DNA of 64,000 bases, taken from positions 6,382,270 through 6,446,269 of the forward strand of contig JADJBV010000001.1 of the NCBI GenBank assembly GCA_016703535.1, given 5' to 3'. Made by a program: the position numbers and the translations under genes. Shown here piece after piece: positions 8,321 through 39,940 of this stretch. How positions within the stretch are numbered: position 1 is the stretch's first letter; each line of letters begins with the position of its first letter. The notes under the pieces are model-generated. The model was not told the origin of the DNA. It saw only the letters and a list, made by a program, of their open reading frames with translations, and did not search any database. The DNA comes from Deltaproteobacteria bacterium (GTDB lineage: Bacteria; Myxococcota; Kuafuiibacteriia; Kuafuiibacteriales; Kuafuiibacteriaceae).

Positions 8321-9303
8321 TGCGCGCCGCCGTTTGGTTGCTTTTGGCTTGGCCTTCGGTCGCGGGGGCCGAACCCAGCCTACGTTTGTTGGCCGTGGAT
8401 CCGTCGGCCTGTGCGCGTGACGGCGTGGTGAAGGTGGAGCTGGAGGAGCTGGAGCTGGAGGGCGAGGTCCGAGACTTTCCCGCCAACACCTTCCGCTTGG
8501 TCCTCGACGAGTTGACCTTGGGGCAAGAGGCGGTGCACGCGCAGACCCTGGCCCAGTCGGAGGTGCCGCTGTCGATCGCGGTGGTGCTGCAGGCCGACCT
8601 TACTTATCGGCCTGACTTCGAGCGCCTGACCCAACTCACCCGTACTTTCTTGCGCGCCTTGCCCGCTCGAACTCAAGTGGGGGTGTGGACGTACGGCGAC
8701 GCGGTGATCGCCCGGGCCCAAGGCACCACGCCGGATCTGGCCGCCGACAGCATCGCCCAGATCTTTGCGGTGGATCGGGTGGGGAGTTCCGCGCTGCAAG
8801 CCTGGCAACAAGCCTTCACAGCCCTGCGAGCGGCGCCGGGCCGGCGCTTTTTGATCACGGTGGCCGACGGCAAAAACGAGGCCCCCGACCGAGCCGCGAT
8901 CCGCGCGTTCGGGGATCAGCTGGCCGCCGCCGGAATCTTGTTTCATCCCCTCGCCTACTCTCCCGCCGACGATCGGGAGCCGATGCTCCACCTGGGTGAG
9001 TTGGCCAAACGATCGGGCGGCACTTTTCGCTTAGGCACCAGCCTAAGTGATCTCGAGGCCCAGCTCGCCAACCTGAGCGCCCAGCTGGAGCGCCGCTGGA
9101 TCTTGAGTTTTTTGGTGCCGGATCGGTGTGCCCAGCCCCACCAACTCCAGGTTGGCCATGGCGCACTGCGCTCCGAGCCCCGGCCTTTGCCGGCGGTGGT
9201 GCCGCCGCCGCCGCCGGTGGGGATCTACGTGGGGGTCGGGGTGGGCGTGTTGGCGCTGGGAGCCGTGGGATTTTTGGTGCACCGGCGCAGGCGGATGGGG
9301 TGA
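8320..9303 (+). CDS. Secreted/membrane-anchored vWA-like protein, paralogous to the ectodomain of the 4903..7119 protein
   Basis: ATG 8320 overlaps the stop of the PP2C-FHA gene (TGATG). Signal peptide 'MRAAVWLLLAWPSVAGA'. The vWA-like core has a degenerate MIDAS ('LSIAVVLQADLTY', 'RFLITVADG', 'LGELAKRSGGTFR'). C-terminal TM 'IYVGVGVGVLALGAVGFLV' followed by HRRRR. Confidence 0.7.
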
Positions 9304-10562
9304 ACGTGGGAGCACCCCATCACCTCACCGATCGAGTCATCGCCGGCTACCGCACGGTGGCCATCGGGACCTTCAACTTCTTGCTGCTCTTTGGGCTGGT
9401 GAACGCCATCGCCCACGCGATCTTGGTCTCGCCGGCGCCCCATCCGGAGGGAGGTCACTTCCTGTCGGCGGGGGCGGCGCTGACGGAGCGCACGGAACTG
9501 TTGCGTGGACGTTATCCGGGGCGAAGTGACGCCGAAATCCGCACCTTGATCGAGACGCCCCAGGTGATGGCCCATCCCAAGCTTGAGTTTATCGGGAGGC
9601 CGGGCACCTCGGGCTTCTACACCGTCGGCGCCGACGGGGTGCGCAGCAACGGAGCGCAGGAGTCGTCCCGAGCCCTCGATGACGCGGTGTGGGTCTTCGG
9701 TGGGTCCACGGCCTTCGGGCACGGCGTGGCCAACGAGGACACCATCGCCGCGGCGCTGGAGCGGCTCGATCCTTCGCGCCGATACTTGAACCTGGGCGTT
9801 CAAGGTTACCACCTGAACCTTGAGTTGGATCGGCTGGTGCATTTGCTCAAGCAAGGCCACCGCCCCCGCCACGTCATCTTCATCGACGGCCTCAACGACG
9901 CCATCGCCTGCCGGGCGAGCAACTTCGCGCCCGAGGACCTGCCCTTCTTCGTCGCCAACGCCTACGGTCACCAGTACAACATCGCCCACGAGGTGCTGCC
10001 CAAGGGGTTGGGGTGGTTCCTGCGGCAGCTCCCGGTCACCAAGCTGATTCGGCGGGAGTGGGCCGCGGGGAAGGCACAAGAAGAACCCAGGGATCCCGGG
10101 TACACCGATCCCCACGATCCGTCGTCACTCTACGTGCGAGATCCGCTGCTCCACTACGAGCTCAACCAGGCGCGAGTTCGGGAGCCCAGCGCCACCCCAA
10201 GCGACGTCGAGAAGTTTCGACGCTACTATCGCGCCAACCTCGAGCTGCTGCGGGGGCTGGAGAAGGGCTTCGGCTTCCGAGGTGACGTCTTCTTTCAGCC
10301 CAACGGCCTGCTCAACCTGGAGACCGGCTTCGTCTTGGATCCCAGCCAGTACCAGACGAGTGAACTCTACCGGAGCCTCGAGGCCATGCAGGCGGCGATC
10401 AAAACCGACCTCGCCGCCGGCCGCTTGCCCGGCATGGTCGATCTGAGCGAGGCGGATCGGAGCTGCCGCGACTGCTACGTCGACGCGGTCCACTACGACC
10501 GGCGCCTGGCCGAGGTCCTGGCTCAACACATCCTCACCACCACCTCCTCGATCGGTCGCTGA
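9300..10562 (+). CDS. Membrane-anchored SGNH/GDSL-type hydrolase
   Basis: ORF 9126..10562. The probable start is GTG 9300 or 9306, overlapping the vWA stop codon. N-terminal TM 'VAIGTFNFLLLFGLVNAIAHAILV'. SGNH blocks are 'VWVFGGSTAFGHG' (nucleophile Ser), 'FIDGLNDA' (GxND) and 'DAVHYD' (DxxH). Confidence 0.65.
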   Translation: MNVGAPHHLTDRVIAGYRTVAIGTFNFLLLFGLVNAIAHAILVSPAPHPEGGHFLSAGAALTERTELLRGRYPGRSDAEIRTLIETPQVMAHPKLEFIGRPGTSGFYTVGADGVRSNGAQESSRALDDAVWVFGGSTAFGHGVANEDTIAAALERLDPSRRYLNLGVQGYHLNLELDRLVHLLKQGHRPRHVIFIDGLNDAIACRASNFAPEDLPFFVANAYGHQYNIAHEVLPKGLGWFLRQLPVTKLIRREWAAGKAQEEPRDPGYTDPHDPSSLYVRDPLLHYELNQARVREPSATPSDVEKFRRYYRANLELLRGLEKGFGFRGDVFFQPNGLLNLETGFVLDPSQYQTSELYRSLEAMQAAIKTDLAAGRLPGMVDLSEADRSCRDCYVDAVHYDRRLAEVLAQHILTTTSSIGR

Positions 10563-10662
10563 GGAGTTGGGCCCGGTGTCCCATGGGACTCGCCGGGATC
10601 AATCTCGCCTGATCGGCCCGCCCACCTTGACCCGCACTTCGAAGGCCCGTCAGCCTGGTGGG

Positions 10663-12033
10663 ATGGTGCGTCATGGTGTGGTGCTTGCGCTCCTCCTGAC
10701 CGCGGTGAATGCGGGGTGCGTCGCGCCGACGGAAGAACTTGGTCTTGGGGTCGGGATCGACGCCAACTTCGAGGCGAGGGACGCCGGCGACGATGGCGAT
10801 GATTCGTCCATTGCGCCTCGAGATGGCGGCGCCGACTTGGATGGGGCGGTGGGTCGGGACGCAGCCCCTCGAGATGTGGCGACGACCCCCATGGAGCGCA
10901 TGGCCTGCGGCTTGCCGCTCCCACCGGTGCAGTCGAACCCGACGTTTCCCGATCTGGCCGAGCTGAACATGGAGCTCCGCCCCGGCCTCGGCGCGACCTT
11001 TCGCGGACGACTCGTGGAGCCCGGGACCCTCTTCCGCATCTGGCTCGAGCTGGTGGACGAGTCGGGGAGGGTCGTCAAAGCCGAAGCGTCGGTGGAGCCT
11101 GATGAGTTCGAGCTCTTCGTTGGTGTCGACGCCTGCACCCAAAGCGGGGTGCGACGCCTCCAAGGCGTGATCCTCCGGGACTCCAACCAGCTCGAGACCA
11201 TGTTTCGGGATCTCGATGGGGATGGGGTCTTTGAAGTCATTCAGGACGGAGCCCCGCGCGGACAGCGGGATCTGGGCCGCTGGATCCTGAACTCTCCCAC
11301 GGCTTCGAGCGCTCACCCGATCCTGACGTCCATCACTTTGGCACCGTTGGACGCAGGCGAGGGCGTGGGTTTCGCCGCCAACGTCACCCTCTCGGGCGGG
11401 GAAGGTTGTGGCGCGGCTTCGGTCGTCTCCTTCGCCCGGGCCGTGAGCAACTATCCCTGCCAACCGGTGCTCCAGGGGGTCTCCAGCCTCGTCGGCGGTC
11501 GGGCCCGACCCGCCACGATGATGCGCCGCTGCATGGGCGGCGGCACCTGGACCATCGAGGGGCTGGCGCTCCGACCCAACTCCCATCCTTGGGATTTGGT
11601 GCCGATCGAAGATCCGAGTGGCTTGCTCCCAATCTCGATCGATCTGGGCGGGCCGGCTCCGTTCTCAGGTGTGCCTCAGGTCGAGGGCCTGACCTTCTCG
11701 AAGGAGTCGCGTTCGGACGGTACGGTCATCACGGTGGTCGGCGACTCCAACTTTCGCTGCCCCGCCTCCGGGAGCATCACCTTCAACCCTCTCGAGCCCA
11801 ACGCCCTCCCGGTCACCGGGATCGCCTCTTTGGGCGGCGGCGACTTCAGCGCCTGCCTCTTCATTCCGAAGAAGTGGTCGCCCAATCGCTTTGAGCTCTC
11901 CCAGATTCGGGTCCGCCCCGAGTACGGATGTGATCTGAACTTGGTGGCGCGTGGTGGGGTGCTGCAGGACCTCAGCCAACCCGGCTCCGGCTCCGAACTC
12001 CCGACGGCACTCCCGGTGATCACGACACCCTGA
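10663..12033 (+). CDS. Hypothetical lipoprotein
   Basis: ORF 10567..12033. ATG 10663 gives 'MVRHGVVLALLLTAVNAGC' (lipobox), followed by an Asp/Gly-rich linker. No recognisable domain. Confidence 0.6.
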   Translation: MVRHGVVLALLLTAVNAGCVAPTEELGLGVGIDANFEARDAGDDGDDSSIAPRDGGADLDGAVGRDAAPRDVATTPMERMACGLPLPPVQSNPTFPDLAELNMELRPGLGATFRGRLVEPGTLFRIWLELVDESGRVVKAEASVEPDEFELFVGVDACTQSGVRRLQGVILRDSNQLETMFRDLDGDGVFEVIQDGAPRGQRDLGRWILNSPTASSAHPILTSITLAPLDAGEGVGFAANVTLSGGEGCGAASVVSFARAVSNYPCQPVLQGVSSLVGGRARPATMMRRCMGGGTWTIEGLALRPNSHPWDLVPIEDPSGLLPISIDLGGPAPFSGVPQVEGLTFSKESRSDGTVITVVGDSNFRCPASGSITFNPLEPNALPVTGIASLGGGDFSACLFIPKKWSPNRFELSQIRVRPEYGCDLNLVARGGVLQDLSQPGSGSELPTALPVITTP

Positions 12034-26667: not shown

Positions 26668-27969
26668 CTATGGCCGAGCAGGCGCCCAGGCGAGGCCGTA
26701 AGGCAGGGCACCGTGGACCCCAAAGGCCGCCCGCACCCGCTGGTTGCCGTCCAAAAACAGGACCCGGTGGGCCTCGTCGAGCTCGGGCCACTCCATGCGT
26801 TCGAGCTGGTTGTCCAACACGTTCGGCGGAACGGCGTCGGTCCGAGCCCGGTTGCGTCGGTGGTAGTCGGCGAGGTCCAGGTGAAAGACCACCAAGGTGA
26901 CCAAAGTGCCGTAGTCGAAGCCCAAACCAGCGACCCGGGTCCGGAAGTCCTGGCGCAAGCTGGTGGCGTCCCACACCACCGGCCGTTGTTTTCGCAAGCT
27001 GGCTTTCAATCGCTCTCTGCCTTCGGCGAGGACCCGATCGTTGGCGCCCTGATCACCTCGGTCCGAGCCGAGTTCTTCCCGCAGATCGTCGAGAGAGAGG
27101 TGATCGAAGCCGGCCAGGTGTTTTTGCGCGAAGGTGGTCTTGCCCGAGCCGCTGGGGCCAACGGTGATCACCAGATCCGAACGGGCCTCTCGGGCCTGAA
27201 AACTCCGGGCCACCGCCTCTTCTAGGCTGTGGATCTCACCCCGCTCTAAGCTGCGCCGGGCCTCGGACAGCGCAAAATCGATCACTTGATCGCCGTGACC
27301 CGCGAGGGACTCCACCAGCCGCGCCCGCCAGCTCGGGTCCTGCTCGCCGTGCCGAACGAACGCGCCGTAGTCTTCGGCGAAGAGCCGATACAGATCGATC
27401 TTCTCGATGGCCTCGGCCCGATCCCGGCAGGTCCGGCCCCGCATGTCCGCCTGCTCGACCCAATAGAGGAGCTCCGGATCGGCCAGGCGGCTGACCCGCT
27501 GATAGGCCCCGGCGCTCCGCTCCTTCACCACCAAAAACTTGGGCTCGTGGTGATGGCCGACCAAACCCAACAACACCTCCAGGGACGGATACGGCAACTC
27601 CTCCAACAACCGCGGCGCCAAATAGGAACGCCCCGCGGCCTCGTGACCCCGGGCGACGATGCGCTCCACCCCCTTCAGCTCCTGGGGTCGGGTGCAGATC
27701 GGCTTGGCGATGTCGTGGAGCAGGGCCCCCAACACCAAGAGCAATCGGCCCTCCCCTTCCAGGTGGGCGGCCGGCCCCGCGAGGAGTTGGTAGGCCTCGT
27801 CCATCACCATCTGGGTGTGGATGTGCACGTCGCCTTCGGCGTGCCACTCCGGATCTTGCGGCGTCTCTCGAAAGCGCCGCAACAACGGCAGCCGATCGCC
27901 CAGGGCCTCGACGCACTCGTCGAGGTTCGGAGACGCACCCCGACGAATCTCATCAAAGAAGGTCTTCAT
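26668..27969 (-). CDS. HD-Pnk-type RNA/DNA end-healing enzyme (N-terminal HD phosphoesterase + C-terminal P-loop polynucleotide kinase)
   Basis: The ORF track gives 26668..28059. ATG 27969 ('MKTFFDEIRRG') overlaps the RNA ligase stop (ATGA). HD motif 'LGALLHDIAKP' plus 'GHHHEPK'. Walker A 'ITVGPSGSGKTTFAQ' sits in the C-terminal third. Confidence 0.8.
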   Translation of the reverse strand: MKTFFDEIRRGASPNLDECVEALGDRLPLLRRFRETPQDPEWHAEGDVHIHTQMVMDEAYQLLAGPAAHLEGEGRLLLVLGALLHDIAKPICTRPQELKGVERIVARGHEAAGRSYLAPRLLEELPYPSLEVLLGLVGHHHEPKFLVVKERSAGAYQRVSRLADPELLYWVEQADMRGRTCRDRAEAIEKIDLYRLFAEDYGAFVRHGEQDPSWRARLVESLAGHGDQVIDFALSEARRSLERGEIHSLEEAVARSFQAREARSDLVITVGPSGSGKTTFAQKHLAGFDHLSLDDLREELGSDRGDQGANDRVLAEGRERLKASLRKQRPVVWDATSLRQDFRTRVAGLGFDYGTLVTLVVFHLDLADYHRRNRARTDAVPPNVLDNQLERMEWPELDEAHRVLFLDGNQRVRAAFGVHGALPYGLAWAPARP

Positions 27970-28610
27970 GACTTCTTCCCGGGTTCTCGCAGGCCGTTGG
28001 GCGTCACCACCCCGTGCATCCAATGATCGTCGGTCTGAACGTGACCGCGCCGCACCCACTTGGCCACGTGCTCCGAAAAGCGCGCGTACGGGAAGGCGCC
28101 GGCGCTGCGCACCACGTACCCTTCACAACGTTGGAGATCGAGCTTGAGGCTCCGGAGCCGGGCGTCGTCGTAGGGCCCTTCGTAGAGCGTCGGCACCAAC
28201 TCGAGGCCCAGCCGCATGGCCCAAGCCTTGGTCTCGGCCCACGACAAACAAGTGTTGGTCTCATCCCAGATCGAAAAGACAAAGAAGTAGCTGGCCAGAT
28301 CTTCGTACGCCACCGAATGCCGCGCGTAGAGATTTTCGCCGCAGACCCGAAACCCCGCCGGGATCTGGTAGCCGATCTCGCCCTGCAGCCGCTTCAGCCA
28401 ATCCCGGGACGGGTGGTGACGGCCATCCAGCGAGCGGGCGTGGAGCCCATCTTGGTAGAGGGTCGAGTTTTCGCCGTCGAGCTTTTCGGTGACCACCACC
28501 GGGGCCGACGACAAAGCCGCCGGGACCTCGGTGACCAGATCGTCGCTGCTGACCCCGGGAGACCAGGGCAGATGGGGCGTCCTAGGATACTTGAAGCGTT
28601 GGGTCGCCAT
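27966..28610 (-). CDS. ATP-dependent RNA ligase family protein
   Basis: The ORF track gives 27966..28643. The likely start is 'MATQRFKYPRTPHLPWSPG' at 28610. Covalent nucleotidyltransferase motif I is 'TEKLDGEN' (KxDG). Further motifs are 'VCGENLY', 'CEGYVVR' and 'VAKWVR'. Confidence 0.75.
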   Translation of the reverse strand: MATQRFKYPRTPHLPWSPGVSSDDLVTEVPAALSSAPVVVTEKLDGENSTLYQDGLHARSLDGRHHPSRDWLKRLQGEIGYQIPAGFRVCGENLYARHSVAYEDLASYFFVFSIWDETNTCLSWAETKAWAMRLGLELVPTLYEGPYDDARLRSLKLDLQRCEGYVVRSAGAFPYARFSEHVAKWVRRGHVQTDDHWMHGVVTPNGLREPGKKS

Positions 28611-28889
28611 GACCCACCTCCTTTGGCGGAGCCCAAGGCCCACGCCATCCCGCGATAGAGCATCGAGCGCAGAGCGGCTCGAAGGAACCGGGACCGAGGA
28701 GATTACATGGCGGAGGCTCGGAGAGATAAATAGGCTAAGCCAAGGCTCCGAAGGAGGTCAACCAGAGTTGCAGGACTTCAAGCTTCAGCGGACCAGAGAC
28801 CAACGACGACGATGGGATAGCAACCGGGTGGACCAGATCCGAGCGCTGGAAACGGCCAAACCCCCGCAGATCCCGGTGGCCACCAACAC

Positions 28890-29411
28890 CCGCCCTTCGA
28901 CCGGGCAAGGAGCCGCGCCTGCTGCCCGCGGAAGATGGCTTCCACGAAGACCCGCGCCATCGCCGCCAGGCCGTCTGCACGGACCGCCAACAACCCGACC
29001 AACTCCGAAGGCGGAGACAGAACGTACTGCCGAATCGGAACATCGGGGAACACACGCTCCACGAAGTGCGTCGCGACGTCGTCCATCCACCGCGCGCCGC
29101 AGCTCGGGCAGAGGCCGCGCCCTTTGGTCGCTCCGGCCATCCTGGCCTCTCGCGACACTTCCCGCGTCCTGTGGGTCGCACGAAAACGCCAGCGCCCGCT
29201 CCACTTGGCAGTCCGGGCAGCGCAGCCTGACGAAGCCCGCCTCGGGGACACCGCACACCAGGAACCGCTCCACTGCCCGGCCCACGAACTTGGGGATGGG
29301 GACCCCGGCCTCCTTGCTCTGCGCCACTAGCGCCGGCCACCAGCGCGTCACCAGTCGGTGCAGCACGCCCGAGCGCGGATCGCGAGCGGAGTAGCGCCGA
29401 GGACGATCCAC
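28890..29411 (-). mobile_element. IS91-family (rolling-circle Y2) transposase, 5' fragment only, frameshifted
   Basis: Two overlapping track ORFs (28785..29411 and 28778..29251) together read 'RYSARDPRSGVLHRLVTRWWPALV...FLVCGVPEAGFVRLRCPDCQVERALAFSC', then a frameshift, then 'KGRGLCPSCGARWMDDVATHFVERVFPDVPIRQYVLSPPSELVGLLAVRA...FRGQQARLLARSKGG'. This is the IS91 N-terminal zinc-binding domain. Family-like sequence stops at about 28890. Confidence 0.75.
28891..29039. repeat. Direct repeat copy 1 (~149 bp) shared by the two IS91 fragments
   Basis: Hand alignment: 'cgcccttcgaccgggcaaggagccgcgcctgctgcccgcggaagatggcttccacgaagacccgcgccatcgcc...caacaacccgaccaactccgaaggcggagacagaacgtactgccgaatcgga' against 39545..39692. 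They are near-identical except for about 15 substitutions and a 2-nt indel. Confidence 0.8.
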
Positions 29412-29803: not shown

Positions 29804-30148
29804 TTAGGGGACGAAGACCTCGACCCGATCGACCGCGCCGAAGGCCATCACCGAGGCTCCGCCCGGCACGTAGATCCGATCACCAATCGCCGCGGCGCCT
29901 GTCCCGTGCCGGCCGGTGGTCATCGGGCTCAAGCTTGACCACCGCTCGGTCTCAAAGCTCCAAGCCTCGACCGCGTCAAAGACCGCGCTGGCGGCGCCGG
30001 TGTTGCCTTCGCCGCCGAAGACGTAGAGCGCCTCGTTGAGGATCGCGGCGGCGGCGCCTCCTCGAGAGGTCGGCATCGGGGGCCCGGCGCTCCAGGTACC
30101 GGCGGTGGGATCGTAGAGGTCGAGCTGAGCGGTGTGCCCCGTGATGGG
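29804..30148 (-). pseudogene. Kelch-repeat protein gene, 3' fragment (5' end deleted at the island junction)
   Basis: Track ORF 29804..30076 reads 'LYVFGGEGNTGAASAVFDAVEAWSFETERWSSLSPMTTGRHGTGAAAIGDRIYVPGGAS'. Manual upstream extension keeps Kelch-like sequence ('GHTAQLDLYDPTAGTWSAGPPMPTSRGG') to about 30145, then 'FRRRPIT' and a stop. No start or N-terminal blades are present. Confidence 0.7.
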
Positions 30149-30217: not shown

Positions 30218-31222
30218 ATGGATCTCAATCCGACTCGCCCCACTTTCGACTTCATCCCGATGGGGCCGGGCGCAGGCCCCTTGACGAGTCCCTCGACTTT
30301 CGACGACTCAAGAAGCATGTACATCGAAATGGTGCGGCAGGTCGTCGAGGAGGCGGTTGCTGTTCATGCGGCCGCGGAGAAGAAGACCATCTCCGATGTT
30401 CTGAAGGAAGTTCGCGAGCACATCGACGCAACAGCGAGGGAACATCAGAAGGACGAACCGGCAATCGACTATCAGAATGCGCTGTGTCGGCTTGGCTACC
30501 TCTACCGCCACGCTCCCGCAAACGCGACGTTGTTCGAGCGCGTCCTTCGTGATTGTCCAGACTTCCTGCTCAAGATTAAAGAACGCAACGGAGCGCGGTT
30601 GCACGTGTGCTCGGTTGGCGGGGGACCTGGCACCGAACTCCTTGGGCTCTCGAAGTTCTTACTCAGGCGGCCCGAGCTTGCGCCGAGCAAGATACAGTTC
30701 ACGGTGTTGGATCGGATCCCGCAATGGGCAGAGACCTGGCAGCGCCTGGCCGATGCCGTCGAGGACCAGTTCAAAAAAGCGCCGACGGGCGCCAAGCCGA
30801 GCATTGCTCCCTCGTTCCTGCCCATGGATGTGTGCGATCCGACCTCATACAAGAGCTACGCCTATCATTTCAGCACGGTCGACATTGTGGTCTTCAACTA
30901 CTTGTTCTCGGAGAACAAGACTCGCTTGGCGGCGGCAGCGGAAGCGGCCCGCCACTTGCTCAACTCCAGCCCGGTGGGTGCTTTGTTCCTATTCATCGAT
31001 CGCCACGAAGCAGACGGACAGCTCACAGAGGCCGTGAGAGCAATGATCCCGACGACTCCTCCTTGCACGGCCAACCTGTTTGGAGGGACGATCGATCGGG
31101 ACGAAGACCGGAAGGCGATGGGCGACATGTTGATGGGAGCTTTGGGCAACCCACGAGTGAAGTTCTTCACGGACAACTACCGTGACCCAACGGCTTTTTG
31201 GACGGCGATTCGGCGCACATGA
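30218..31222 (+). CDS. Class I SAM-dependent methyltransferase-like protein
   Basis: The ORF track gives 30134..31222. The start is placed at ATG 30218 ('MDLNPTRPTF'), just past the Kelch remnant. Motif I is 'LHVCSVGGGPGTELLGL', the post-I acidic residue is in 'FTVLDRI', and 'VDIVVFNYLFSE' follows. GC is lower and A/T-ending codons are more frequent than in the flanks. Confidence 0.65.
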   Translation: MDLNPTRPTFDFIPMGPGAGPLTSPSTFDDSRSMYIEMVRQVVEEAVAVHAAAEKKTISDVLKEVREHIDATAREHQKDEPAIDYQNALCRLGYLYRHAPANATLFERVLRDCPDFLLKIKERNGARLHVCSVGGGPGTELLGLSKFLLRRPELAPSKIQFTVLDRIPQWAETWQRLADAVEDQFKKAPTGAKPSIAPSFLPMDVCDPTSYKSYAYHFSTVDIVVFNYLFSENKTRLAAAAEAARHLLNSSPVGALFLFIDRHEADGQLTEAVRAMIPTTPPCTANLFGGTIDRDEDRKAMGDMLMGALGNPRVKFFTDNYRDPTAFWTAIRRT

Positions 31223-32142
31223 TCATCTCCGCCAGCTACAAGACTGACATCCCTGCGTTCTACGGAACGTGGTTTCGAAATCGCCTTCGTGCCGGGTTTT
31301 GCAAGACCGTCAATCCGCTCAATCGCGATCAGCACTCCACGATTTCACTGAAGCGGTCTGACGTCGAAAGCTACGTCTTCTGGACGAAGGGTCAGGGACC
31401 GTTCTTGCCGGTGCTCGATGAGCTGCATGAGGCTGGCTTCCCGTTCATCGTTCAGTACACGATAAACGGCTACCCTCGGGCTCTTGAAACGCGAGTTAGC
31501 GACTCGGATCGGGCCGTCGAACAAATGCAGGTGGTCTCACGTAGGTTCGGTCCCCGAGTAGCTGTCTGGCGCTACGACACCATCGTGCTCTCGTCATTGA
31601 CCGATTTCGCATTCCATCGAAGGAACTTCGAACGGCTTGCTGAAGCTCTCTCCGGAACAACGGACGAAGTCGTCGTCTCGTTTCTTCAGCTCTACCAGAA
31701 GACGAAGCGCAATCTCGACGAAGCCGGACGCGTGGAAGCGTTTGAATGGTGGGATCCAACGGTGGAAGAGAAGAGGGACCTGCTTTCTGCCCTGGCGCAG
31801 ATCGCTGCTTCAAATCGAATGCGACTCACCATTTGCACGCAACCGGACCTTGTCGTGGCCGGTGTCGGGGAGTCTCGCTGCATTGACGGTGAGCGCCTGA
31901 TGGACTTGGCCGGTGGACGATTCCCGGCGAAGGTCAAAGGCATGCGGGAGGGCTGCGGCTGCTACGAGTCGAAGGACATCGGCGACTACGACACGTGCCC
32001 ACATGGATGTGTCTACTGCTACGCCGTTCGCGATCGAGACCTCGCGCTGAATCGGTTTAAGGCTCACGATCCGGAAGGCGAGTACCTGTTTCCCGTTCAG
32101 CCCCCGAAGCCGGCGAGGCAGCTGCGGTTGTTCGGAGAGTAG
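31219..32142 (+). CDS. DUF1848-family protein (C-terminal Cys cluster, putative Fe-S)
   Basis: ATG 31219 ('MIISASYKTDIPAFYGTWFRNRL', the typical DUF1848 opening) overlaps the methyltransferase stop (ATGA). The C-terminal cluster is 'EGCGCYESKDIGDYDTCPHGCVYCYA'. Confidence 0.7.
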   Translation: MIISASYKTDIPAFYGTWFRNRLRAGFCKTVNPLNRDQHSTISLKRSDVESYVFWTKGQGPFLPVLDELHEAGFPFIVQYTINGYPRALETRVSDSDRAVEQMQVVSRRFGPRVAVWRYDTIVLSSLTDFAFHRRNFERLAEALSGTTDEVVVSFLQLYQKTKRNLDEAGRVEAFEWWDPTVEEKRDLLSALAQIAASNRMRLTICTQPDLVVAGVGESRCIDGERLMDLAGGRFPAKVKGMREGCGCYESKDIGDYDTCPHGCVYCYAVRDRDLALNRFKAHDPEGEYLFPVQPPKPARQLRLFGE

Positions 32143-32307: not shown

Positions 32308-32670
32308 CGCCTTTCCCAAGGTTGAAGTCGCGAGTTCGGTTCTCGTGTCCCGCTCTCGTATACCCCCGAAATCTTAGGTGGTTCGAACGACGCGCAGTCG
32401 CTTCGATCCCCCCATTTCGGTAGCTCCGAACCTCCGAACCCGGTCCTCCAGCGATGGAGCGGGGAGCGGGCGCGCTCCACGCTCGAGAAGTACAAGGGGT
32501 GGCGAGAACGGGATCGGGGAGGCGCAGACGATCGTCGCGGTGGGTGGTGCAAGCTACGTTGCGGCGCGGTTGTCGGCGCAGATTGGTGGGCCGGAGGGCA
32601 AGACGATCCTCGGCATCCGTCTACCCAAGCCCAGAACCTGTCGAGTTTTCGCAGGCCGTCCCGACTCAGA

Positions 32671-33726
32671 CTAAAGCGGACAGGTCGTCCCGCACCGAGA
32701 GCAGCCGGCCGTCTGCTTTCCGTCTACACAGGTTCGGTGTTCTGCTCGCCACTGCACAGCGGCCTCATCGGCCGCCGTCTCGTCTAGATTGTGCAGGTCA
32801 ATAATGTGGGCAGCGACCCGGGCCGCGCGAACCGCCTCCAGCGTGGATTCGAGGCTCGGGATGCCTCCTGTATGCTCCTCGCGCGTCACGGCCGCAAGCA
32901 CGTGGGCTGCTCCGTGAACACCCATCAGAGTGGCGCCGATAGCGGCCGACACATGGTCCTGTCCGTCCGCCGCGTCGGTAGGAATGGGGCCCAAGGGCAT
33001 GACTGGGAAGCCAGCAGGAGCTAGGATCGAAGCCACTCTCAGGATGTCCCGCGGTCGAGCATGACCAGGTGACTCAACAATCACGCTTGTTCCGCTTCGC
33101 ACGAGCTGTGAAGCGAGGTCCAACTGGGCCGCGATCTCTCCTAGTTGCGCTTCATCCAGCGAGTCAAAGATGTTCGCCGAGCGAAAGGACGCCCCGAGGC
33201 TCAGCGTCACGCCCCGGCGAGCTGCCTCCTCTGCCAGCTTCGGCATGATGTCCTGGTAAGCGTTGCCTCCGTCTCCGCGAAGTAGGAGGTCGTTGATGAC
33301 CAATCCGCCCCCTCGGGAAGTCCACGGAACACGTCGCCGACGCGCTAGGCGAACCAGCTCACGAGTCGGGGTCGGATGAATCGTCAGGAGGCCGGCACCT
33401 CGTTCCATCTGCTCGATGGCTCTATTGAGTAAGGCAGAACGATCAATCTGGCCCGATGTCGAGACAGCGGAATACACGGGCAACGTCGCGGCGACAAAGC
33501 CATATGAAACTATGCACTCCAGGAGCGGTTCGTTCGACGCAACAATCGATAGATCGGATACGATATCGGGACCGACTTCCATCTGTGCAAGCGCGTCAAT
33601 TTTTGCTCGCTGGGATCCGAAGTCGCGAATGTGGCTAGAGCCGACCAGGGCCATCACTGACGTTCGAATCCCAGGACCTACCGCGACGCTCGGGAGCGCT
33701 CGCCGCCCTAGCAAGGCAACAGTCAT
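32671..33726 (-). CDS. Minimal ThiC-like radical-SAM enzyme (HMP-P synthase/BzaF superfamily), 351 aa
   Basis: ATG 33726 ('MTVALLGRR') overlaps the stop of the SIR2-SLOG gene (ATGA). ThiC-core motifs occur in order: 'ATLPVYSA', 'GAGLLTIHPT', 'VPWTSRGGG', 'VTLSLGASFRSA', 'VIVESPGHARP', 'PVMPLGPIPTDAADGQDHVSAAIGATL' and 'LAAVTREEHTGGIP'. The C-terminal cluster 'CSRCGTTC' is CX2CX3C, against CX2CX4C in canonical ThiC. Confidence 0.8.
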   Translation of the reverse strand: MTVALLGRRALPSVAVGPGIRTSVMALVGSSHIRDFGSQRAKIDALAQMEVGPDIVSDLSIVASNEPLLECIVSYGFVAATLPVYSAVSTSGQIDRSALLNRAIEQMERGAGLLTIHPTPTRELVRLARRRRVPWTSRGGGLVINDLLLRGDGGNAYQDIMPKLAEEAARRGVTLSLGASFRSANIFDSLDEAQLGEIAAQLDLASQLVRSGTSVIVESPGHARPRDILRVASILAPAGFPVMPLGPIPTDAADGQDHVSAAIGATLMGVHGAAHVLAAVTREEHTGGIPSLESTLEAVRAARVAAHIIDLHNLDETAADEAAVQWRAEHRTCVDGKQTAGCSRCGTTCPL

Positions 33727-35096
33727 TTGAGGCTCGCTTCCACGCACCGAACCACGTCGGCAGCGCTGACACGGCCACTTCTCGCCTTTTCTAAGTAGGC
33801 TGGATCGATTTTCTGGAGCAGCCCGGCTACGCCCGGCTCATCGAGTTGCAGCGCGGCCAGACCCTTGCGTTGGATTGGCACAGGAACGATTTGGCACCGA
33901 TGGGCGCGCGCAACCTCCAGTTCCGCGGCCGTGCCCATGCCTCCATCAAACACAACCATCGTCCTGGCGGCGGCAAAGAGGCCTCCACGGTATCGCTTGA
34001 GATCGTCGAGGAGTGACCTGTCGTTTGAAAATGCAGGCCTTATTGCATAAGGATTCGGAAAAATCCTAATGCGCTGACGCAGGTCGGTTTGTCTTCGAAG
34101 GCAAGCATCGCCGAAAGCGTTGACGGCATGGCGGCCAATACCCTCGGACTGGCCGTCCAGAAGCACAATCGCCGGATCGATTTCGGAGAGCTTTGCTCCC
34201 ACCAGTGCCGCAAGGTCAGTCGCACGACGAGCAGCCTTATGCCCACCACTTACGAACACGGCCCGGTCCCGAGCTCGGAGGGCTAGATTGTCGAATACGT
34301 GCTGGATTTCATCGTATCCTTGGACGATCGCACAACGAATTCCAACCCGCATGAGATCCTCGGTCCAGAGTGCCTGGCGCTTCGCGTCTTCAGCACTGCT
34401 GGCTACCTTAAGCAGCATAAAATGTTCGCGAGTCGCGCGTTTGGCCAACCTCCTTGCTTGAACCAGCGCGGTTGAGATGCTGGAATCCCGATAGCCATAG
34501 CCAGCAAACAGGAAAGTTTTGTGGAGCAAGTCGTGCTGGAGGCGCTGCACAAAACTGGGCCGACGAGCCGCAAATTCCTCATAGTCGTCGGTCGTGATGA
34601 TGAGGTCGTTGGGCGAGCTTCGCTCGATGCATCCATGCACCTTCAGTATTTCAAAGTCATCAGCGAGGACATCCTGCGTAAAGTCTTGATCGTCAATCCG
34701 CACGACAACCCTCCGGTGTGCCATCGAGTCCTCAAGAAGACGATCGAAATTTGTGGTCCAGACGGTATCAATCGGAGTGAGCCGCAGGGCGGCGTGGTAG
34801 GAGTTTGGAAGAAGTCCGCGATTTAGCTTCGCTCTAAATGCCGCGACCAGGGGACCACGATTGCCCTTGTCGGCATTTACCAAATGCTGTGCGATCAACG
34901 GTAAGTCGTCGGTCTCCTTCAGGTCCAACCCGATCCGCCTCGCGTGCGGCTTCAATAGACCAAGCCAACTTGGCGCATTCGACTTGGCGGATATCCCGGA
35001 TCCCAAAAAGTACGCGCCCACACCGGCCGCGATTGCCTGAGCCATCCCATCAACCACGTAGGAGAGATCGACTCCAACCGACTTTGGTTCAGCCAT
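33723..35096 (-). CDS. ThsA-type SIR2-SLOG protein (Thoeris effector-like NADase architecture)
   Basis: The ORF track gives 33723..35132. ATG 35096 has a GGGAGA Shine-Dalgarno-like element about 10 nt upstream. SIR2_2-type motifs are 'AYFLGSGISAKSNAPSWLGLL', 'VWTTNFDRLLE' (catalytic Asn position) and 'EILKVHGC' (catalytic His position). The C-terminal SLOG/LOG-like Rossmann shows 'AVFVSGGHKAARR' and 'MVVFDGGMGTAAELEVA' (GGxGTxxE). Confidence 0.8.
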   Translation of the reverse strand: MAEPKSVGVDLSYVVDGMAQAIAAGVGAYFLGSGISAKSNAPSWLGLLKPHARRIGLDLKETDDLPLIAQHLVNADKGNRGPLVAAFRAKLNRGLLPNSYHAALRLTPIDTVWTTNFDRLLEDSMAHRRVVVRIDDQDFTQDVLADDFEILKVHGCIERSSPNDLIITTDDYEEFAARRPSFVQRLQHDLLHKTFLFAGYGYRDSSISTALVQARRLAKRATREHFMLLKVASSAEDAKRQALWTEDLMRVGIRCAIVQGYDEIQHVFDNLALRARDRAVFVSGGHKAARRATDLAALVGAKLSEIDPAIVLLDGQSEGIGRHAVNAFGDACLRRQTDLRQRIRIFPNPYAIRPAFSNDRSLLDDLKRYRGGLFAAARTMVVFDGGMGTAAELEVARAHRCQIVPVPIQRKGLAALQLDEPGVAGLLQKIDPAYLEKARSGRVSAADVVRCVEASLK

Positions 35097-35216
35097 TCCG
35101 TTTCGTCTCCCTCGCTGTTTGCGCCGGCTCATTGAACGTGACCGCCGTCTCCGTCCGCCCCATGCCTCTTCTGTTCAAACAGGCGCGACGAAATCTTAAA
35201 AGCAAGCGGTCACACA

Positions 35217-36050
35217 TCAAGTCGCAGTGCCAAAAAGCCCCAGTTGTTTCTCGGGAGGAATCGGGAGGACGCCGACGATCACCCACGGGTTGGGAGCGAC
35301 GAAATGGAACTGCTGCGTTGTTCCGAGGAAAAAGTGGAGATCGGTCTGCAGGAACTCGTCGAAGTACTTCTTGTGCACCTTGGCCAAGGCCGTTGGCTCG
35401 TCACCATTTGCGCGCCTGAGGCAGTTCCAGTAGAGCGCCCCTGCCTCCCAATCGAGCACTTGAAGATCGCTCTGCCGCCCTGCAGCGTCTTCGAACCGGT
35501 ACGTGAAACTATAGGGCAGCTTGTCGATGACCTTGAATGTCTCGCGCCAAGTGTTGTCCGCAAAGAGGTCATACTGCTTTGTCGCCTCGCGCATCTGCTT
35601 GACCCGCTCGGGGTCCCAAACACGCTCTTCGACTTCGGAGTAGAAATCCAGAATCTTTGATGGCCTGAACACTGCGAGTGACGCCGTGTTCGCTTTCGCA
35701 CTTGCGATCAAATCGTCTAAACGGTCGTAGACGCGAGCGGTTTCCAACAGGATACGCCTCCGTGCACCCCAATTGTTGCTAGTGTCGATGTGATCGACCG
35801 CGATCAGCTCGTGCTCATCAATTGGACGGAAGGTCTCCGGTCTCGGGTCGGATGGATTGCGAGCAAGGCGACACTCGAGCCAATCATACTTGTGGTACTG
35901 CTCTTTCTGATCCAGGCGCCGGAACGGAACCGGGTAGATGCGGACCCACGACCCATCTTCGCGGACTCCAGCAGTGCACACGGTCTCCCCGTACTTCCGG
36001 GACAGCGTTGGGTAGGTCTTGACCGTGATCAGGACACGCTCTTTGTTCAT
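35217..36050 (-). CDS. Hypothetical protein, 277 aa (no family recognised)
   Basis: Clean ORF with non-repetitive, balanced composition ('MNKERVLITVKTYPTLSRKYGETVCTAGVREDGSWVRIYPVPF...'). A GAGG sits 4-7 nt upstream of the ATG, inside the end of the preceding gene. The gap to the DUF488 gene is 6 nt. Confidence 0.65.
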   Translation of the reverse strand: MNKERVLITVKTYPTLSRKYGETVCTAGVREDGSWVRIYPVPFRRLDQKEQYHKYDWLECRLARNPSDPRPETFRPIDEHELIAVDHIDTSNNWGARRRILLETARVYDRLDDLIASAKANTASLAVFRPSKILDFYSEVEERVWDPERVKQMREATKQYDLFADNTWRETFKVIDKLPYSFTYRFEDAAGRQSDLQVLDWEAGALYWNCLRRANGDEPTALAKVHKKYFDEFLQTDLHFFLGTTQQFHFVAPNPWVIVGVLPIPPEKQLGLFGTAT

Positions 36051-36056
36051 CTCGCC

Positions 36057-36989
36057 TCAAAGGTCCGTCGCGTGAAGGTCCTTTCCGAATTGTCGTTCCA
36101 GCGCCTCGGCGACGCAATGTCGGTGACACTGGGCCGGTAGGTGTTCGTAGCAAGTAAGGGCGACGCGGTCACCCGCACGGAACCAATCGCGCAGCTTCTT
36201 CAGGGCGCTGGTCTGCTTCGGTAACCAGTCGCGCACATACTCCCTGAAGAGCGCGTCGTAATCGGCTTGGGTATCAAGACTCTGGCGCTTCTCGGACGCG
36301 ATGCCGAGTTCGGGAAGGTGCTCGTAGCGAATCCCGACCGCGTCGCAACCTCGTGCGAGGCTGTTCTTGGAGAAGCCATATTTGCGGCTGATCGGGTTGC
36401 GGCGGACATCGCACAAAATCGTGGTGCCGTTCTTCAGGAGGAGGTTGAGGTAGGTATCAAGCGAATGACCTTCGTAGCCAATCGTCTGAACTGACGCCCG
36501 TTTTTGATCGACTCGAAGGGCAGCTATCTGCTTGAGCGCTATCGCGTCCCCTTTCAGGACGCGGGCAGCGATCTCACTTCGGGTGGCGAAGTACGGAAAT
36601 CTCCGATACGTGTCGGCAACGAGCTCGTCACCTCGCAATTTTTGGTATCGACGCGCAAACGCCGCCATCTGCATGTCGATCGTGCGACCGATGACGCCGC
36701 GGCCTTCGTCAGTGAGCTGCCAGGTGCTCTCGTCGTTCACTAGCAGGCCGCGCTCAACGAGCTTTCGTCGATCGGCGTACGACATGAACGAGAAGGCTCC
36801 GAACTTGTGCGGGACAAAGTCGTAGGGCGCTTCGGACGGGGACTCTTGGCAGTACAGGAAGAGCAGCTTTTGGAAGTCCAGCTTGCTCGCTTGGCCACCG
36901 AGAGCGTCGAGCAGCTGCAAGAGCTGCCGCTGACGAGCGGGCAGCGTCGTCGCGGTCTTCTCCAATGGTCGGGCCCGAGCAGCGGTCAT
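36057..36989 (-). CDS. Two-domain protein: N-terminal helical/wHTH-like domain + C-terminal DUF488 (YeaO-like) domain
   Basis: The ORF track gives 36057..37304. The start is placed at ATG 36989 ('MTAARARPLEK'). The DUF488 part reads 'VQTIGYEGHSLDTYLNLLLKNGTTILCDVRRNPISRKYGFSK...IRYEHLPELG...VALTCYEHLPAQCHRHCVAEAL'. The N-terminal part reads 'KLDFQKLLFLYCQE...YDFVPHKFGAFSF...LVERGLLVNDESTWQLTDEG'. Confidence 0.7.
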   Translation of the reverse strand: MTAARARPLEKTATTLPARQRQLLQLLDALGGQASKLDFQKLLFLYCQESPSEAPYDFVPHKFGAFSFMSYADRRKLVERGLLVNDESTWQLTDEGRGVIGRTIDMQMAAFARRYQKLRGDELVADTYRRFPYFATRSEIAARVLKGDAIALKQIAALRVDQKRASVQTIGYEGHSLDTYLNLLLKNGTTILCDVRRNPISRKYGFSKNSLARGCDAVGIRYEHLPELGIASEKRQSLDTQADYDALFREYVRDWLPKQTSALKKLRDWFRAGDRVALTCYEHLPAQCHRHCVAEALERQFGKDLHATDL

Positions 36990-37150
36990 CAACGTTTCCC
37001 TTGGCGCTTGAGTTTGGGGGAAGCGGTGCGAGATGCTCGGCGATCTCGGGCATCTCGGTCGACCCTCACCCTGCCGAACCCTACCAGCGCGATCCGCTGG
37101 AAACAACTGGGCAATCGAGACGGGAGACACAGGCCAAGCTTCGATCGCAA

Positions 37151-37804
37151 TCAATCTGCAGCGTGAGGCGGTGGGTTCGCAGCGACTTGCCGGTGCTGTG
37201 CCTCGCGGATGCTCACCAGGCTCCGCCGGATGCAGGCGACCTCGCGCTCCCGGACGATTCGCGTCAGTTCGTCCGCGCGGTCGGGAAACTGTTGCGCTAT
37301 CCAAACAGCCCCATTCTCCCAGGCCCCGAGCTCCCGTGCCAGATCGATGGGAGCCGTGCGCACCGCTTCCCGTAGGTCGACGAAGCTTGCAGCAAGGTCT
37401 GGATGAACTCGTTCAAGCTCAGACCAGGCGGCGTCAAAGGTCCGCGCGCCTTGATGTGCCGGCTTGAATCCTTGAAGGAGGTGGCCAAACTCGTGGAGCA
37501 GGTCCGCGATGATCTCCTGTGCACCTGAGGGCGGGGCGGCGTGAAGGTAGATCTTGCTCTGGTCCCACGACACCTTGCTCGTGGCACGAGGGTCCTTGAA
37601 AGGCCGCATCGACCAAACTTGTGCTCGCCAGCTCCGAGGATCCCAGATTCCAGCTGCCGCAAGCTCCGCGTCGCTGACATCCGCAGATTTCCGTTCTCCG
37701 ACGACTTCGATTTCACGTTGGAGGGTGGTTAGCTCAGCCTCGAAGCGCTGGAGGTCGGGGACGTTCTCGAACAGCCTGTTTCGAATCTCGGCGGACGTGG
37801 CCAT
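37151..37804 (-). CDS. Hypothetical protein with HExxH zinc-metallopeptidase-like motif
   Basis: 217 aa. 'IIADLLHEFGHLLQG' contains HEFGH. No signal peptide is present. Its GC is closer to the host than the rest of the island. Confidence 0.5.
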   Translation of the reverse strand: MATSAEIRNRLFENVPDLQRFEAELTTLQREIEVVGERKSADVSDAELAAAGIWDPRSWRAQVWSMRPFKDPRATSKVSWDQSKIYLHAAPPSGAQEIIADLLHEFGHLLQGFKPAHQGARTFDAAWSELERVHPDLAASFVDLREAVRTAPIDLARELGAWENGAVWIAQQFPDRADELTRIVREREVACIRRSLVSIREAQHRQVAANPPPHAAD

Positions 37805-38715: not shown

Positions 38716-39692
38716 TCAGTTCGCGAGTGGGAGAGCTTGTTGCGGCCCGGGCGGGCCGGTGCTCTCCACCGGCACGAACTGGTTTCGACGCAAGGTCCTG
38801 GGGCAGCGGGGGCAGGAATGGCCGTTGACCTCGTAGACGCGGGCCAAGAGCTTCGCCCACGCTTCGCGATACGGCACTGGCGTTGCCGGCTCGAACTTCC
38901 GAGCCCCGAACCACGCGCCTTGCACCGCCACCCAGCCTGCTGGCACCACCTGCGGTCGAAGCCGCGCGGCCGGCGCCAGCACCCCGAAGGCGCGGATCTG
39001 ATGCTGCCGCGGGGGAGGCACCAGCCAGGCCAGGCGCCGGAGCAACGAGAGCGGATGCAGCAGCAGCTCCTGCTGCGTGGTGCGCGTCGGGCGGCGGAGC
39101 GTGAACCGCGCCTGCGCCTCGTCGATGAGCTCGAGCTGGGCCTCCGCGAACGGCGGCCGGGCGGCGTAGCGCACGAGCTGGGCGCGACCGGCGCGGTCGT
39201 CGGCGCCGACCCGCACGCTCGCGTTGACCTCGAAGCGACCTCGGAGCTTCTTCGGCTCCACACTGACGATCCCTACGGCGCACGGGCCGCCGTTGGCCAC
39301 CACGGGTCGTCGGGCCGGCCCTCGGCGCCCTCCTCGAGATACCCATGGCGACGCAGCCACCCCAAAAACCGAAGCTCCACCTCGTCCTCGAGGGCCCCAC
39401 GCTCTCCGGCCGAGGGGCCTTGGTCCTGGCGGAATTCTAGCGTGCCGACGTCCTCCTCCAAGTAGCCGCCGTCGAGCACCCGCACGTGCAGGTGCGGATA
39501 GACCGAAAGCGTCTTCGTGAACCGCTGCACGAACGCCACCGCCCCGCCCTTCGACCGGGCAAGGGGCCGCGCTGCTGCCCGCGGAAGATGGCTTCTACGA
39601 AGACCCGCGCCATCGCCTCCTGGGCGTCGGCACGGGCCGCCAACAACCCGACCAACTCCGAAGGCGGCGACAGAACGTACTACCGAATCGGA
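38716..39692 (-). mobile_element. IS91-family transposase, 3' fragment (catalytic/C-terminal part), multiply frameshifted and lacking the N-terminal zinc-binding domain
   Basis: The pieces from track ORFs 39437..39655, 39273..39743 and 38716..39360 read 'LVGLLAARADAQEAMARVFVEAIFRGQQ', 'ARSKGGAVAFVQRFTKTLSVYPHLHVRVLDGGY...' and 'VRYAARPPFAEAQLELIDE...LLHPLSLLRRLAWLVPPPRQHQIRAFGVLAPAA...WAKLLARVYEVNGHSCPRCP...'. At 39692 the fragment is fused to an unrelated 54-codon ORF start (39693-39852, 'MSKTKRIKRDRPPV...'). Confidence 0.75.
39545..39692. repeat. Direct repeat copy 2 (~148 bp) matching 28891..29039
   Basis: See copy 1. Same orientation, roughly 90 percent identity by hand alignment. Confidence 0.8.
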
Positions 39693-39940
39693 GGTAGGCG
39701 TCGATCTCGCCCGCCAGATCCTGGAGCGATCGGCAGGTGCCACGGCGGAGCAGCCGGTCGAGGTGAAAGACGCCGTCCATCAGGCGTCGCCTGCCGGCGA
39801 CTCGGGCGGATACCGGGGGGCGGTCCCGCTTGATTCGCTTCGTCTTGCTCACGCCAAGCTCCCAGCCATCCCTTGGGGGAAGCTCTTGTCATGAGACCCT
39901 GGGGCAGGAGCAATGTCGGGAACCCAGTTCGGTGGCCGAG

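Follow-up and report, generated by a model that had tools for sequence, protein, structure and literature searches.

Several described systems resemble, in part, a two-gene unit present in a 64,000-nucleotide stretch of a Deltaproteobacteria bacterium genome (Myxococcota; NCBI GenBank assembly GCA_016703535.1, contig JADJBV010000001.1, forward-strand positions 6,382,270 to 6,446,269), called the window below. In this unit, a gene for a class I S-adenosylmethionine (SAM)-dependent methyltransferase (MTase) overlaps a downstream gene for a DUF1848 protein. The sole published link found between a SAM MTase domain and DUF1848 concerns the UG25 reverse transcriptases (RTs), in which an MTase forms the N-terminal part and a DUF1848 gene is associated (Mestre et al. 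2022, PMC9226505). There the MTase is fused to the RT, whereas the window carries a stand-alone MTase of about 300 amino acids (aa) and no RT is among the listed recurrent neighbors of such pairs. A second parallel is DarT/DarG, likewise a mobile two-gene cassette with overlapping genes, in which one enzyme places a nucleic-acid adduct that blocks replication or translation and the other removes it enzymatically, a division of labor that is proposed here. In both cases the family of the second enzyme also supplies stand-alone housekeeping genes. However, DarT/DarG relies on ADP-ribosylation rather than methylation, shares no sequence or fold kinship with the present pair, and differs from it in that toxicity and phage defense are putative here.

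Other parallels concern the individual proteins. The MTase scores above the threshold of PF11312, the family of the yeast 25S rRNA m3U2843 MTase Bmt6 (PMC5307852), and its structural model superposes best on Rsm22/METTL17, but sequence similarity to these proteins is marginal and the bacterial family has invariant motifs of its own. A CX3CX(aromatic)C motif connects DUF1848 with radical-SAM enzymes that have nucleic-acid substrates (spore photoproduct lyase, TYW1, Elp3, RlmN/Cfr and MiaB), whose partial TIM-barrel its predicted fold may resemble; one of these enzymes, TYW1, acts on a methyl group placed by the MTase Trm5. Canonical radical-SAM enzymes carry the motif near the N terminus, whereas in DUF1848 it lies about 40 residues from the C terminus. 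Restriction-modification (R-M) systems also pair an MTase with a second nucleic-acid enzyme, but the present pair has no nuclease, target-recognition domain, or DPPY or PCQ motif. Plant-virus replicases and ALKBH8 likewise place an MTase next to an AlkB domain, although capping is the function of the viral MTase and ALKBH8 serves to make a tRNA modification. AlkB enzymes of the ALKBH3/ALKBH2 type oxidatively demethylate 1-methyladenine and 3-methylcytosine in single-stranded DNA and RNA. They use O2, Fe(II) and 2-oxoglutarate on a double-stranded beta-helix, whereas DUF1848 would use SAM and Fe-S clusters on a predicted radical-SAM-like barrel with no apparent sequence or fold relation to AlkB.

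The MTase and DUF1848 genes are paired across genomes far beyond chance, and beside the same MTase family the DUF1848 gene appears, from the relationships of the MTases, to have been exchanged repeatedly for one encoding such an AlkB. The reading that best fits these observations, to which we give a probability of roughly 45%, is that the MTase N-methylates a nucleic-acid base and that DUF1848, an O2-independent analog of AlkB, removes the methyl group, the two forming a DarTG-like writer/eraser module.

The gene pair and its linkage across genomes

The MTase frame closes with cgc-aca-TGA (31220-31222) and the DUF1848 ATG occupies 31219-31221, giving a 4-nucleotide (nt) overlap. This ATGA junction had been read in an initial annotation of the sequence, as had the SAM-binding motif VGGGPGTE in an MTase with no recognizable target-recognition domain and a C-terminal cysteine cluster in DUF1848; the overlap, the motif and the cluster are all present, and no target-recognition domain was found (Table 1). 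Translation of the MTase most likely begins at ATG 30317 rather than at 30218, because all 24 aligned homologs, each about 300-310 aa long, begin at MYIE... The 33 codons upstream are probably untranslated, and the starts proposed by the open reading frame (ORF) finder at 30134 (GTG) and 30218 (ATG) are probably unused. No sigma-70-like promoter was found upstream of the window MTase, and terminator-like matches did not exceed shuffled expectation.

When the MTase alignment was scanned against one genome per species, 29 loci were obtained; like the other censuses used here (29 + 80 + 9 loci), this set is a sample and not exhaustive. DUF1848 directly adjoins the MTase on the same strand in 26 of these independent loci (25 downstream, 1 upstream), which upholds the linkage for which the initial annotation had proposed a neighborhood census. 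The loci come from Myxococcota, Planctomycetota, Chloroflexota/Dehalococcoidia, Verrucomicrobiota, Acidobacteriota, Proteobacteria, Bacteroidota and the archaeon Methanothrix. In 29 of 30 measured pairs, the spacing between the MTase stop and the DUF1848 start falls between -4 and +25 nt. The two proteins also co-diverge, with identities correlated across 33 pairs (Mantel r=0.65, reached by 0 of 2000 permutations), and the mean pairwise identity of 26% for the MTase vs 50% for DUF1848 shows that the MTase evolves much faster. One locus from a Methanothrix metagenome-assembled genome (L024) carries two tandem DUF1848 copies after the MTase (8921-9793 and 10354-11226).

The three MTase loci without DUF1848 are one disrupted by a transposase (L013), one with AlkB (L020), and one orphan (L023). 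The orphan MTase (952-1830) is intact and lies between ybaB and recR, with neither DUF1848 nor AlkB in the 8 kb downstream, so that intact orphans make up 1 of the 29 loci. The reverse situation is common. Among 80 DUF1848-centered metagenomic loci, an iterated profile detected an adjacent MTase of the family in 14, and where at least 1 kb was available on both flanks the MTase was adjacent in 7 of 33 and missing in 26.

The MTase itself is matched weakly by Pfam Methyltransf_34 (PF11312; 29.7 bits vs 26, profile positions 9-150 of 304), and the same match is precomputed for most of its homologs. Residues G101-G103, P104, T106 and E107 of motif I are invariant in 54 homologs and D132 is intact; motif I, an acidic residue at the end of beta-2 and a seven-stranded fold together mark a class I (Rossmann-fold) SAM MTase that looks catalytically active. 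The structural model (pLDDT 93.7) has this fold plus an N-terminal helical extension, and its best superposition, on Rsm22/METTL17, covers about 230 residues including the extension, at 10-15% identity in the structural alignments. The nearest characterized relatives are rRNA-directed, namely Bmt6 (m3U) and Rsm22/METTL17, with marginal similarity in sequence; a sequence search of solved structures gave no meaningful relative. The family has its own invariant motifs (CRLGYLY, NYLFSEN and IDR.E), and after beta-4 it carries FNYLFSENK where DNA amino-MTases have (D/N/S)PP(Y/F). It has 944 representatives (50% clustering, E<=1e-3), the best 150 of which are without exception fragments or stand-alone proteins of about 300 aa. 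An R-M MTase was rejected because neither motif IV of DNA MTases, as (D/N/S)PP(Y/F/W) or PCQ, nor a target-recognition domain was found, no PADLOC MTase model matched at E<=0.01, and no nuclease is conserved nearby.

The downstream protein matches Pfam DUF1848 (PF08902) over the entire profile (positions 1-262 of 262; E=1.4e-88, 297.6 bits vs a cut-off of 30.5). Seven cysteines are invariant in DUF1848 alignments, and the last three form CPHGCVYC, in which C260-PHG-C264-VY-C267 remains invariant down to homologs of 32-38% identity. The segment that contains this cluster, CGCYESKDIGDYDTCPHGCVYCYA, is encoded at 31954-32025. The position of this canonical radical-SAM motif, toward the C terminus rather than the N terminus, suggests a permuted arrangement, and the other four invariant cysteines, C206, C221, C246 and C248, are candidate ligands of a probable second (auxiliary) cluster. 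As the initial annotation had supposed, the protein thus looks, from these cysteines, like an Fe-S enzyme, and one of radical-SAM type. A Foldseek search of the DUF1848 model against the PDB returned nothing at E<=1e-3, and the only high-probability matches were Elp3 and the activating enzyme PFL-AE; the structural matches, which include spore photoproduct lyase (SPL), Elp3 and Cfr/RlmN, may reflect a partial TIM-barrel. Pfam Radical_SAM (PF04055) does not match the protein, for which Pfam reports DUF1848 alone, and no sequence relative was found in the PDB at E below 0.1. The predicted fold fits radical-SAM proteins best and points weakly to a radical-SAM-type Fe-S enzyme.

DUF1848 is a large family, with at least 6,817 matches among 8,000 scored candidates, and members were seen in gut anaerobes, methanogens, Chloroflexota and probable alphaproteobacteria as well as on some phage-annotated contigs. 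Nearly all members of the clade that includes the window protein are linked to the MTase, and members without it (L038, L041 and L042) are also found inside that clade. A further clade (L049, L052-L055, L060, L062, L063 and L085), which shares 46-56% identity with the window protein, lacks the MTase and is conserved between dnaK-dnaJ and grpE-hrcA, and a second (L092, L099-L110) lies beside holA and gyrA. Such contexts suggest that the basal role of DUF1848 lies in housekeeping or stress. In a 735-kb uncultured megaphage (LR756501; locus L129, 1377-5390), DUF1848 has a third and independent MTase context, where an FkbM-family MTase follows 8 bp downstream of DUF1848 and a Methyltransf_23/14 C-methyltransferase precedes it.

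Neighbor-ORF clustering around the MTase-centered and DUF1848-centered loci revealed no third conserved gene. A scan of the two nearest neighbors per side of 41 pairs, with Pfam and PADLOC, returned a heterogeneous set: type I R-M genes (3-4 loci), helicases, serine recombinases, ThiF, NYN, AAA_15/21 and housekeeping genes. In two further loci, independent gene calls likewise showed an isolated pair, beside PIN and HigBA-like modules in one and beside RecQ in the other. Several homologs have type I R-M, PIN or HigBA-like toxin-antitoxin genes, recombinases or plasmids in their vicinity.

These neighborhoods bear on the idea that the pair is a remnant or minimal form of the UG25 system, an MTase-RT fusion plus DUF1848 that is a candidate for DRT-type defense. 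The PADLOC model for RT-associated DUF1848 does match the window protein (3e-43), but the Pfam DUF1848 score of 297 bits is far above the UG25-type score of 146 bits, and the window MTase matches no PADLOC model. Furthermore, none of the top 150 MTase representatives is fused to an RT, no RT/RVT family ranks among the most frequent Pfam families listed for neighbors of the 41 pairs, and no RT ORF lies beside the window pair. A UG25 origin is therefore highly improbable, and the defense role of UG25 was itself rated inconclusive by its authors (PMC9226505).

AlkB in the place of DUF1848

In the locus L020, the place usually held by DUF1848 is taken by a same-strand gene for an AlkB dioxygenase, which lies 99 bp beyond the MTase. 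A Planktothrix plasmid (L030) combines both arrangements, with an AlkB and MTase-like operon convergent with DUF1848 in one locus. When seven further homologs of the partner-slot AlkB were sampled, the same MTase family was directly adjacent in five; of the other two, one has a 274-aa protein lacking a family assignment upstream and one stands alone. On a mobilizable plasmid of Nostoc, the gene order is relaxase, hypothetical gene, MTase, AlkB and ParA. The cyanobacterial MTase-AlkB cassettes have a small ORF of 84-98 aa ahead of the MTase (Table 1), with no Pfam match and no equivalent in the window, which might act as a further component of this variant or regulate it.

The best solved relative of the partner-slot AlkB is human ALKBH3 (E=5e-47), and it is closest to ALKBH3 and ALKBH2 generally. 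It corresponds to bacterial group 1B, whose members are experimentally repair-active like E. coli AlkB (PMC2790896). The AlkB-linked MTases are nested among the DUF1848-linked ones at no fewer than four places. The L020 MTase, for instance, shares 53% identity with the MTase of L015 and 52% with that of L024, both DUF1848-linked; the L113 MTase has L044 and L034 as its nearest relatives, the cyanobacterial group falls with L036 and L027, and L115 with L030. Judged by these relationships, the partner gene has been swapped in situ, AlkB for DUF1848 or the reverse, at four or more independent places, and repeated exchange of this kind suggests that the two proteins are functionally equivalent.

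A strict division between aerobes with AlkB and anaerobes with DUF1848 was considered and dropped, since DUF1848-linked cassettes also occur in aerobic lineages, Isosphaeraceae, Alcaligenaceae and Chitinophagia among them. Literature searches found no earlier description of a stand-alone MTase-DUF1848 cassette or of the AlkB/DUF1848 alternation, and none of MTase-AlkB operons or of radical-SAM demethylation of nucleic acids.

Possible roles of the pair

The data show the conserved linkage, the coupling, the co-divergence, the motifs, the fold similarities and the alternation of AlkB with DUF1848. We infer from them which class of substrate is used, that DUF1848 demethylates, that the MTase is toxic, and what biological role the pair has. 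Because AlkB replaces DUF1848 in sister cassettes, DUF1848 might perform the O2-free equivalent of the AlkB reaction. The MTase would put an N-methyl group on a nucleic-acid base, and the 5'-deoxyadenosyl radical formed by DUF1848 would take a hydrogen atom from that group. The auxiliary cluster would accept an electron, and hydrolysis of the resulting iminium would release formaldehyde and restore the unmodified base. The product of the MTase would be harmful, whether it is the toxin in a toxin-antidote or abortive-infection module like DarTG or an unavoidable by-product, and the partner would keep it in check.

A product that needs removal, as with DarTG, is suggested by the strict coupling, the rarity of orphan MTases and the frequency of orphan DUF1848 genes. 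It is also suggested by the fast evolution of the MTase, by the mobile, patchy spread of the cassette (plasmids and an IS91-flanked island of low GC content), and by the toxin-antitoxin and R-M genes nearby. Features expected of a toxin-antitoxin system are indeed present, namely tight coupling, mobile and patchy spread, and a putative antidote that is more often an orphan than the putative toxin. A more specific version of this reading is tentative, and we hold it to be somewhat doubtful: DUF1848 would be an O2-independent radical-SAM nucleic-acid demethylase and counterpart of AlkB/ALKBH3, stand-alone copies would serve as a repair route, and copies joined to the MTase would form a methylation-based toxin-antidote (abortive-infection) module.

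A number of points weigh against this interpretation. Most DUF1848 genes have no MTase and lie in housekeeping contexts, and thus DUF1848 has a basal function that is independent of the MTase and onto which the MTase was grafted. The intact orphan MTase of L023 speaks against obligatory toxicity. Association with defense islands is modest (about 4-8 of 41 pairs), and the MTase family is absent from INPHARED and, by pattern scan, from IMG/VR. In addition, replacement in the slot shows that the partners are interchangeable, not that they catalyze the same reaction, and AlkB-family enzymes may also elaborate methylated bases, as ALKBH8 and ALKBH1 do. Literature searches with DUF1848 and PF08902 found no characterization of the family. 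Also, the proposed substrate (RNA, ssDNA or another), activity and role are deduced from gene context, motifs and predicted folds.

The absence of the MTase from INPHARED and IMG/VR led to the rejection of a phage origin for the cassette. DUF1848 is present in eight phage-annotated records, and the four that were examined all lack an MTase of the window family.

The same linkage and partner-swap data also fit a two-step hypermodification, in which the MTase methylates and DUF1848 (or AlkB) builds a stable complex base for self-marking, anti-restriction or RNA tuning. Precedents are Trm5 followed by TYW1, NSUN3 followed by ALKBH1, and ALKBH8, in which MTase and AlkB are fused. Methyl C-H bonds are common targets of radical-SAM enzymes, and hydroxylation of modified tRNA bases is known from the AlkB family. 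The company of FkbM- and C-MTase-family enzymes that DUF1848 keeps in the 735-kb megaphage would suit such a scheme, as would the position of an MTase and AlkB just behind the relaxase gene of a mobilizable plasmid. However, the AlkB partner is of the repair type (ALKBH3/2-like, group 1B) and not ALKBH8- or ALKBH1-like, and it is about 60% identical to a stand-alone AlkB encoded beside a UvrA-like gene. No conserved reader or effector gene is present to use a stable mark, and a scarcity of orphan MTases with an abundance of orphan DUF1848 genes is the opposite of a helpful pattern. Hypermodification is accordingly judged rather unlikely.

The repair-type AlkB partner would also suit a scheme in which the MTase has a useful primary target, for instance DNA or RNA of a mobile element that it methylates for protection or regulation, and AlkB or DUF1848 cleans up off-target methylation at N1 of adenine or N3 of cytosine. 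A damage-control role of this kind has been proposed for the AlkB domains beside MTase domains in plant-virus replicases. It would suit the cassettes on plasmids, the stand-alone housekeeping genes of both DUF1848 and AlkB, and the tolerance of one orphan MTase. Nevertheless, ordinary DNA and RNA MTases need no dedicated, translationally coupled eraser, and this MTase lacks both a target-recognition domain and DNA-MTase motifs. Strict linkage (26 of 29) and at least four partner replacements imply that the main product, and not a rare by-product, needs handling, and damage control is thus unlikely.

Tailoring of a small molecule or natural product would make the pair an O-, N- or C-methyltransferase and a radical-SAM enzyme of a biosynthetic cluster, as the sugar-type MTases beside DUF1848 in the megaphage might hint. 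This is very unlikely: no biosynthetic neighbors are conserved, the best matches of the MTase are RNA-directed, the alternative partner is a nucleic-acid demethylase, and the cassette travels as two genes only.

The genomic island and the wider meaning of the cassette

The pair shares a segment of low GC content (0.56-0.62 at 30-38 kb vs 0.65-0.70 in the flanks) with other defense genes recognized by PADLOC. Degenerate fragments of an IS91-family transposase bracket the segment and share a 121-nt direct repeat (93% identity), and a fragment of a Kelch-repeat gene lies directly upstream of the MTase. The low GC content, the IS91 brackets with their repeat and the Kelch fragment suggest that the defense island, including the pair, was acquired horizontally. 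No tRNA gene was found at the island ends.

Table 1. Positions of the gene pair, its sequence features and surrounding elements (window coordinates, except for the three cyanobacterial loci in the last rows)
Feature	Position	Strand	Basis or remark
Class I SAM-dependent MTase, 301 aa	30317..31222	+	Methyltransf_34/Bmt6-like, Rsm22/METTL17-like fold
SAM-binding motif I of MTase, VGGGPGTE	30614..30637	+	Direct sequence reading
ATGA stop/start overlap of MTase and DUF1848, translational coupling	31219..31222	+	Sequence; tight junctions kept in other genomes
DUF1848 protein, 307 aa, predicted radical-SAM-like Fe-S enzyme, MTase partner	31219..32142	+	
CPHGCVYC of DUF1848 (CX3CX(aromatic)C; C260, C264, C267), C-terminal	31996..32019	+	Sequence
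C206, C221, C246, C248 of DUF1848, candidate auxiliary-cluster ligands	31834..31962	+	Invariant alignment columns; ligand role inferred
RNA ligase (PF09414) adjoining HD + AAA_33 kinase-like protein	26668-28643	-	
IS91-family transposase fragments, degenerate	28785-29411 and 38716-39743		
121-nt direct repeat in IS91 fragments	28919-29039 and 39572-39692		93% identity
Kelch-repeat fragment, 90 aa	29804-30076		
Guanidine-II (mini-ykkC) match	32651-32696	-	28.4 bits vs gathering 32, E=0.019
ThiC-like ORF, truncated, divergent	32671-33747	-	Pfam ThiC_Rad_SAM 1.8e-44; far below NCBIfam ThiC cut-offs
ThsA-like SIR2-SLOG gene	33723-35132	-	PADLOC ThsA 5.5e-66
PDC-M19 candidate system, two genes	35217-37304	-	PADLOC: M19B 1e-108; M19A 7e-100, containing DUF488
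217-aa ORF following PDC-M19 genes	37151-37804		No family assignment; weak HExxH-type match
Small ORF ahead of cyanobacterial MTase, L116	1270-1566		
Small ORF ahead of cyanobacterial MTase, L119	1154-1420		
Small ORF ahead of cyanobacterial MTase, L125	3617-3871		

Facing the pair is an operon of a ThsA-like gene and a truncated ThiC-like ORF whose stop lies at 32671, leaving 528 bp between the convergent genes, close to the 530 bp that had been noted before. The initial annotation had proposed that the pair might mark self nucleic acid for this operon, or tailor a metabolite of its ThiC-like enzyme, in a logic of modification plus an NADase effector. Physical proximity (convergent genes, 528 bp apart, in one low-GC defense island) is all that favors such a tie. 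No tblastn match to ThsA, the ThiC-like gene, PDC-M19A/B or the ORF at 37151-37804 was obtained in the 29 MTase-centered loci, and neither a ThiC nor a SIR2 family ranks among the 25 Pfam families seen most often in the nearest neighbors of the 41 pairs. The genes are on opposite strands, and the pair stands alone in independent contexts. A functional tie to the ThsA/ThiC-like operon is thus extremely improbable, and a role of the pair as a Thoeris (ThsA) accessory was rejected for want of co-occurrence with ThsA in the 29 loci.

The proposal of a modification module survives in part. A role on nucleic acids is the most plausible, whereas tailoring of the ThiC-like product lost its footing when no co-occurrence was seen. 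The effector logic had to be given up, since no effector is conserved, the MTase lacks R-M features and ThsA never co-occurs at the sampled loci; the alternative occupancy of the slot by AlkB points instead to methylation coupled to methyl removal and not to an effector. Because none of the other island genes (ThiC-like, ThsA, PDC-M19A/B) recurs at MTase loci, the cassette is autonomous. The two genes form a horizontally mobile unit.

Several other features of the island are recorded for their own sake. The ThiC-like ORF abuts or overlaps the ThsA-like gene in the position normally held by the TIR protein ThsB of Thoeris, and the two could be a variant of Thoeris in which an enzyme of radical-SAM type, not a TIR protein, generates the signal. 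Beyond them lie the two-gene PDC-M19 candidate system and the 217-aa ORF (Table 1). At the island edge, the RNA ligase and the adjoining HD and AAA_33 protein look like an RNA repair, or healing-and-sealing, pair. An Rfam scan of 28.5-40 kb returned solely the sub-threshold guanidine-II match, which lies across the 3' end of the ThiC-like ORF and across a terminator-like hairpin and is probably a chance match.

The exchange of AlkB and DUF1848 beside one MTase family yields a concrete prediction for the large and uncharacterized DUF1848 family. If the prediction is true, it would add a new radical-SAM reaction, the N-demethylation of nucleic acid, and would explain how such lesions are reversed in organisms that are unable to use the O2-dependent AlkB. 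The stand-alone DUF1848 proteins would then represent a missing route for the direct reversal of lesions of the 1-methyladenine/3-methylcytosine type in anaerobes and other bacteria, and the cassettes would constitute a new class of methylation-based writer/eraser conflict module. Even without an eraser role for DUF1848, a cassette of just two genes in which the partner swap is defined is experimentally tractable.

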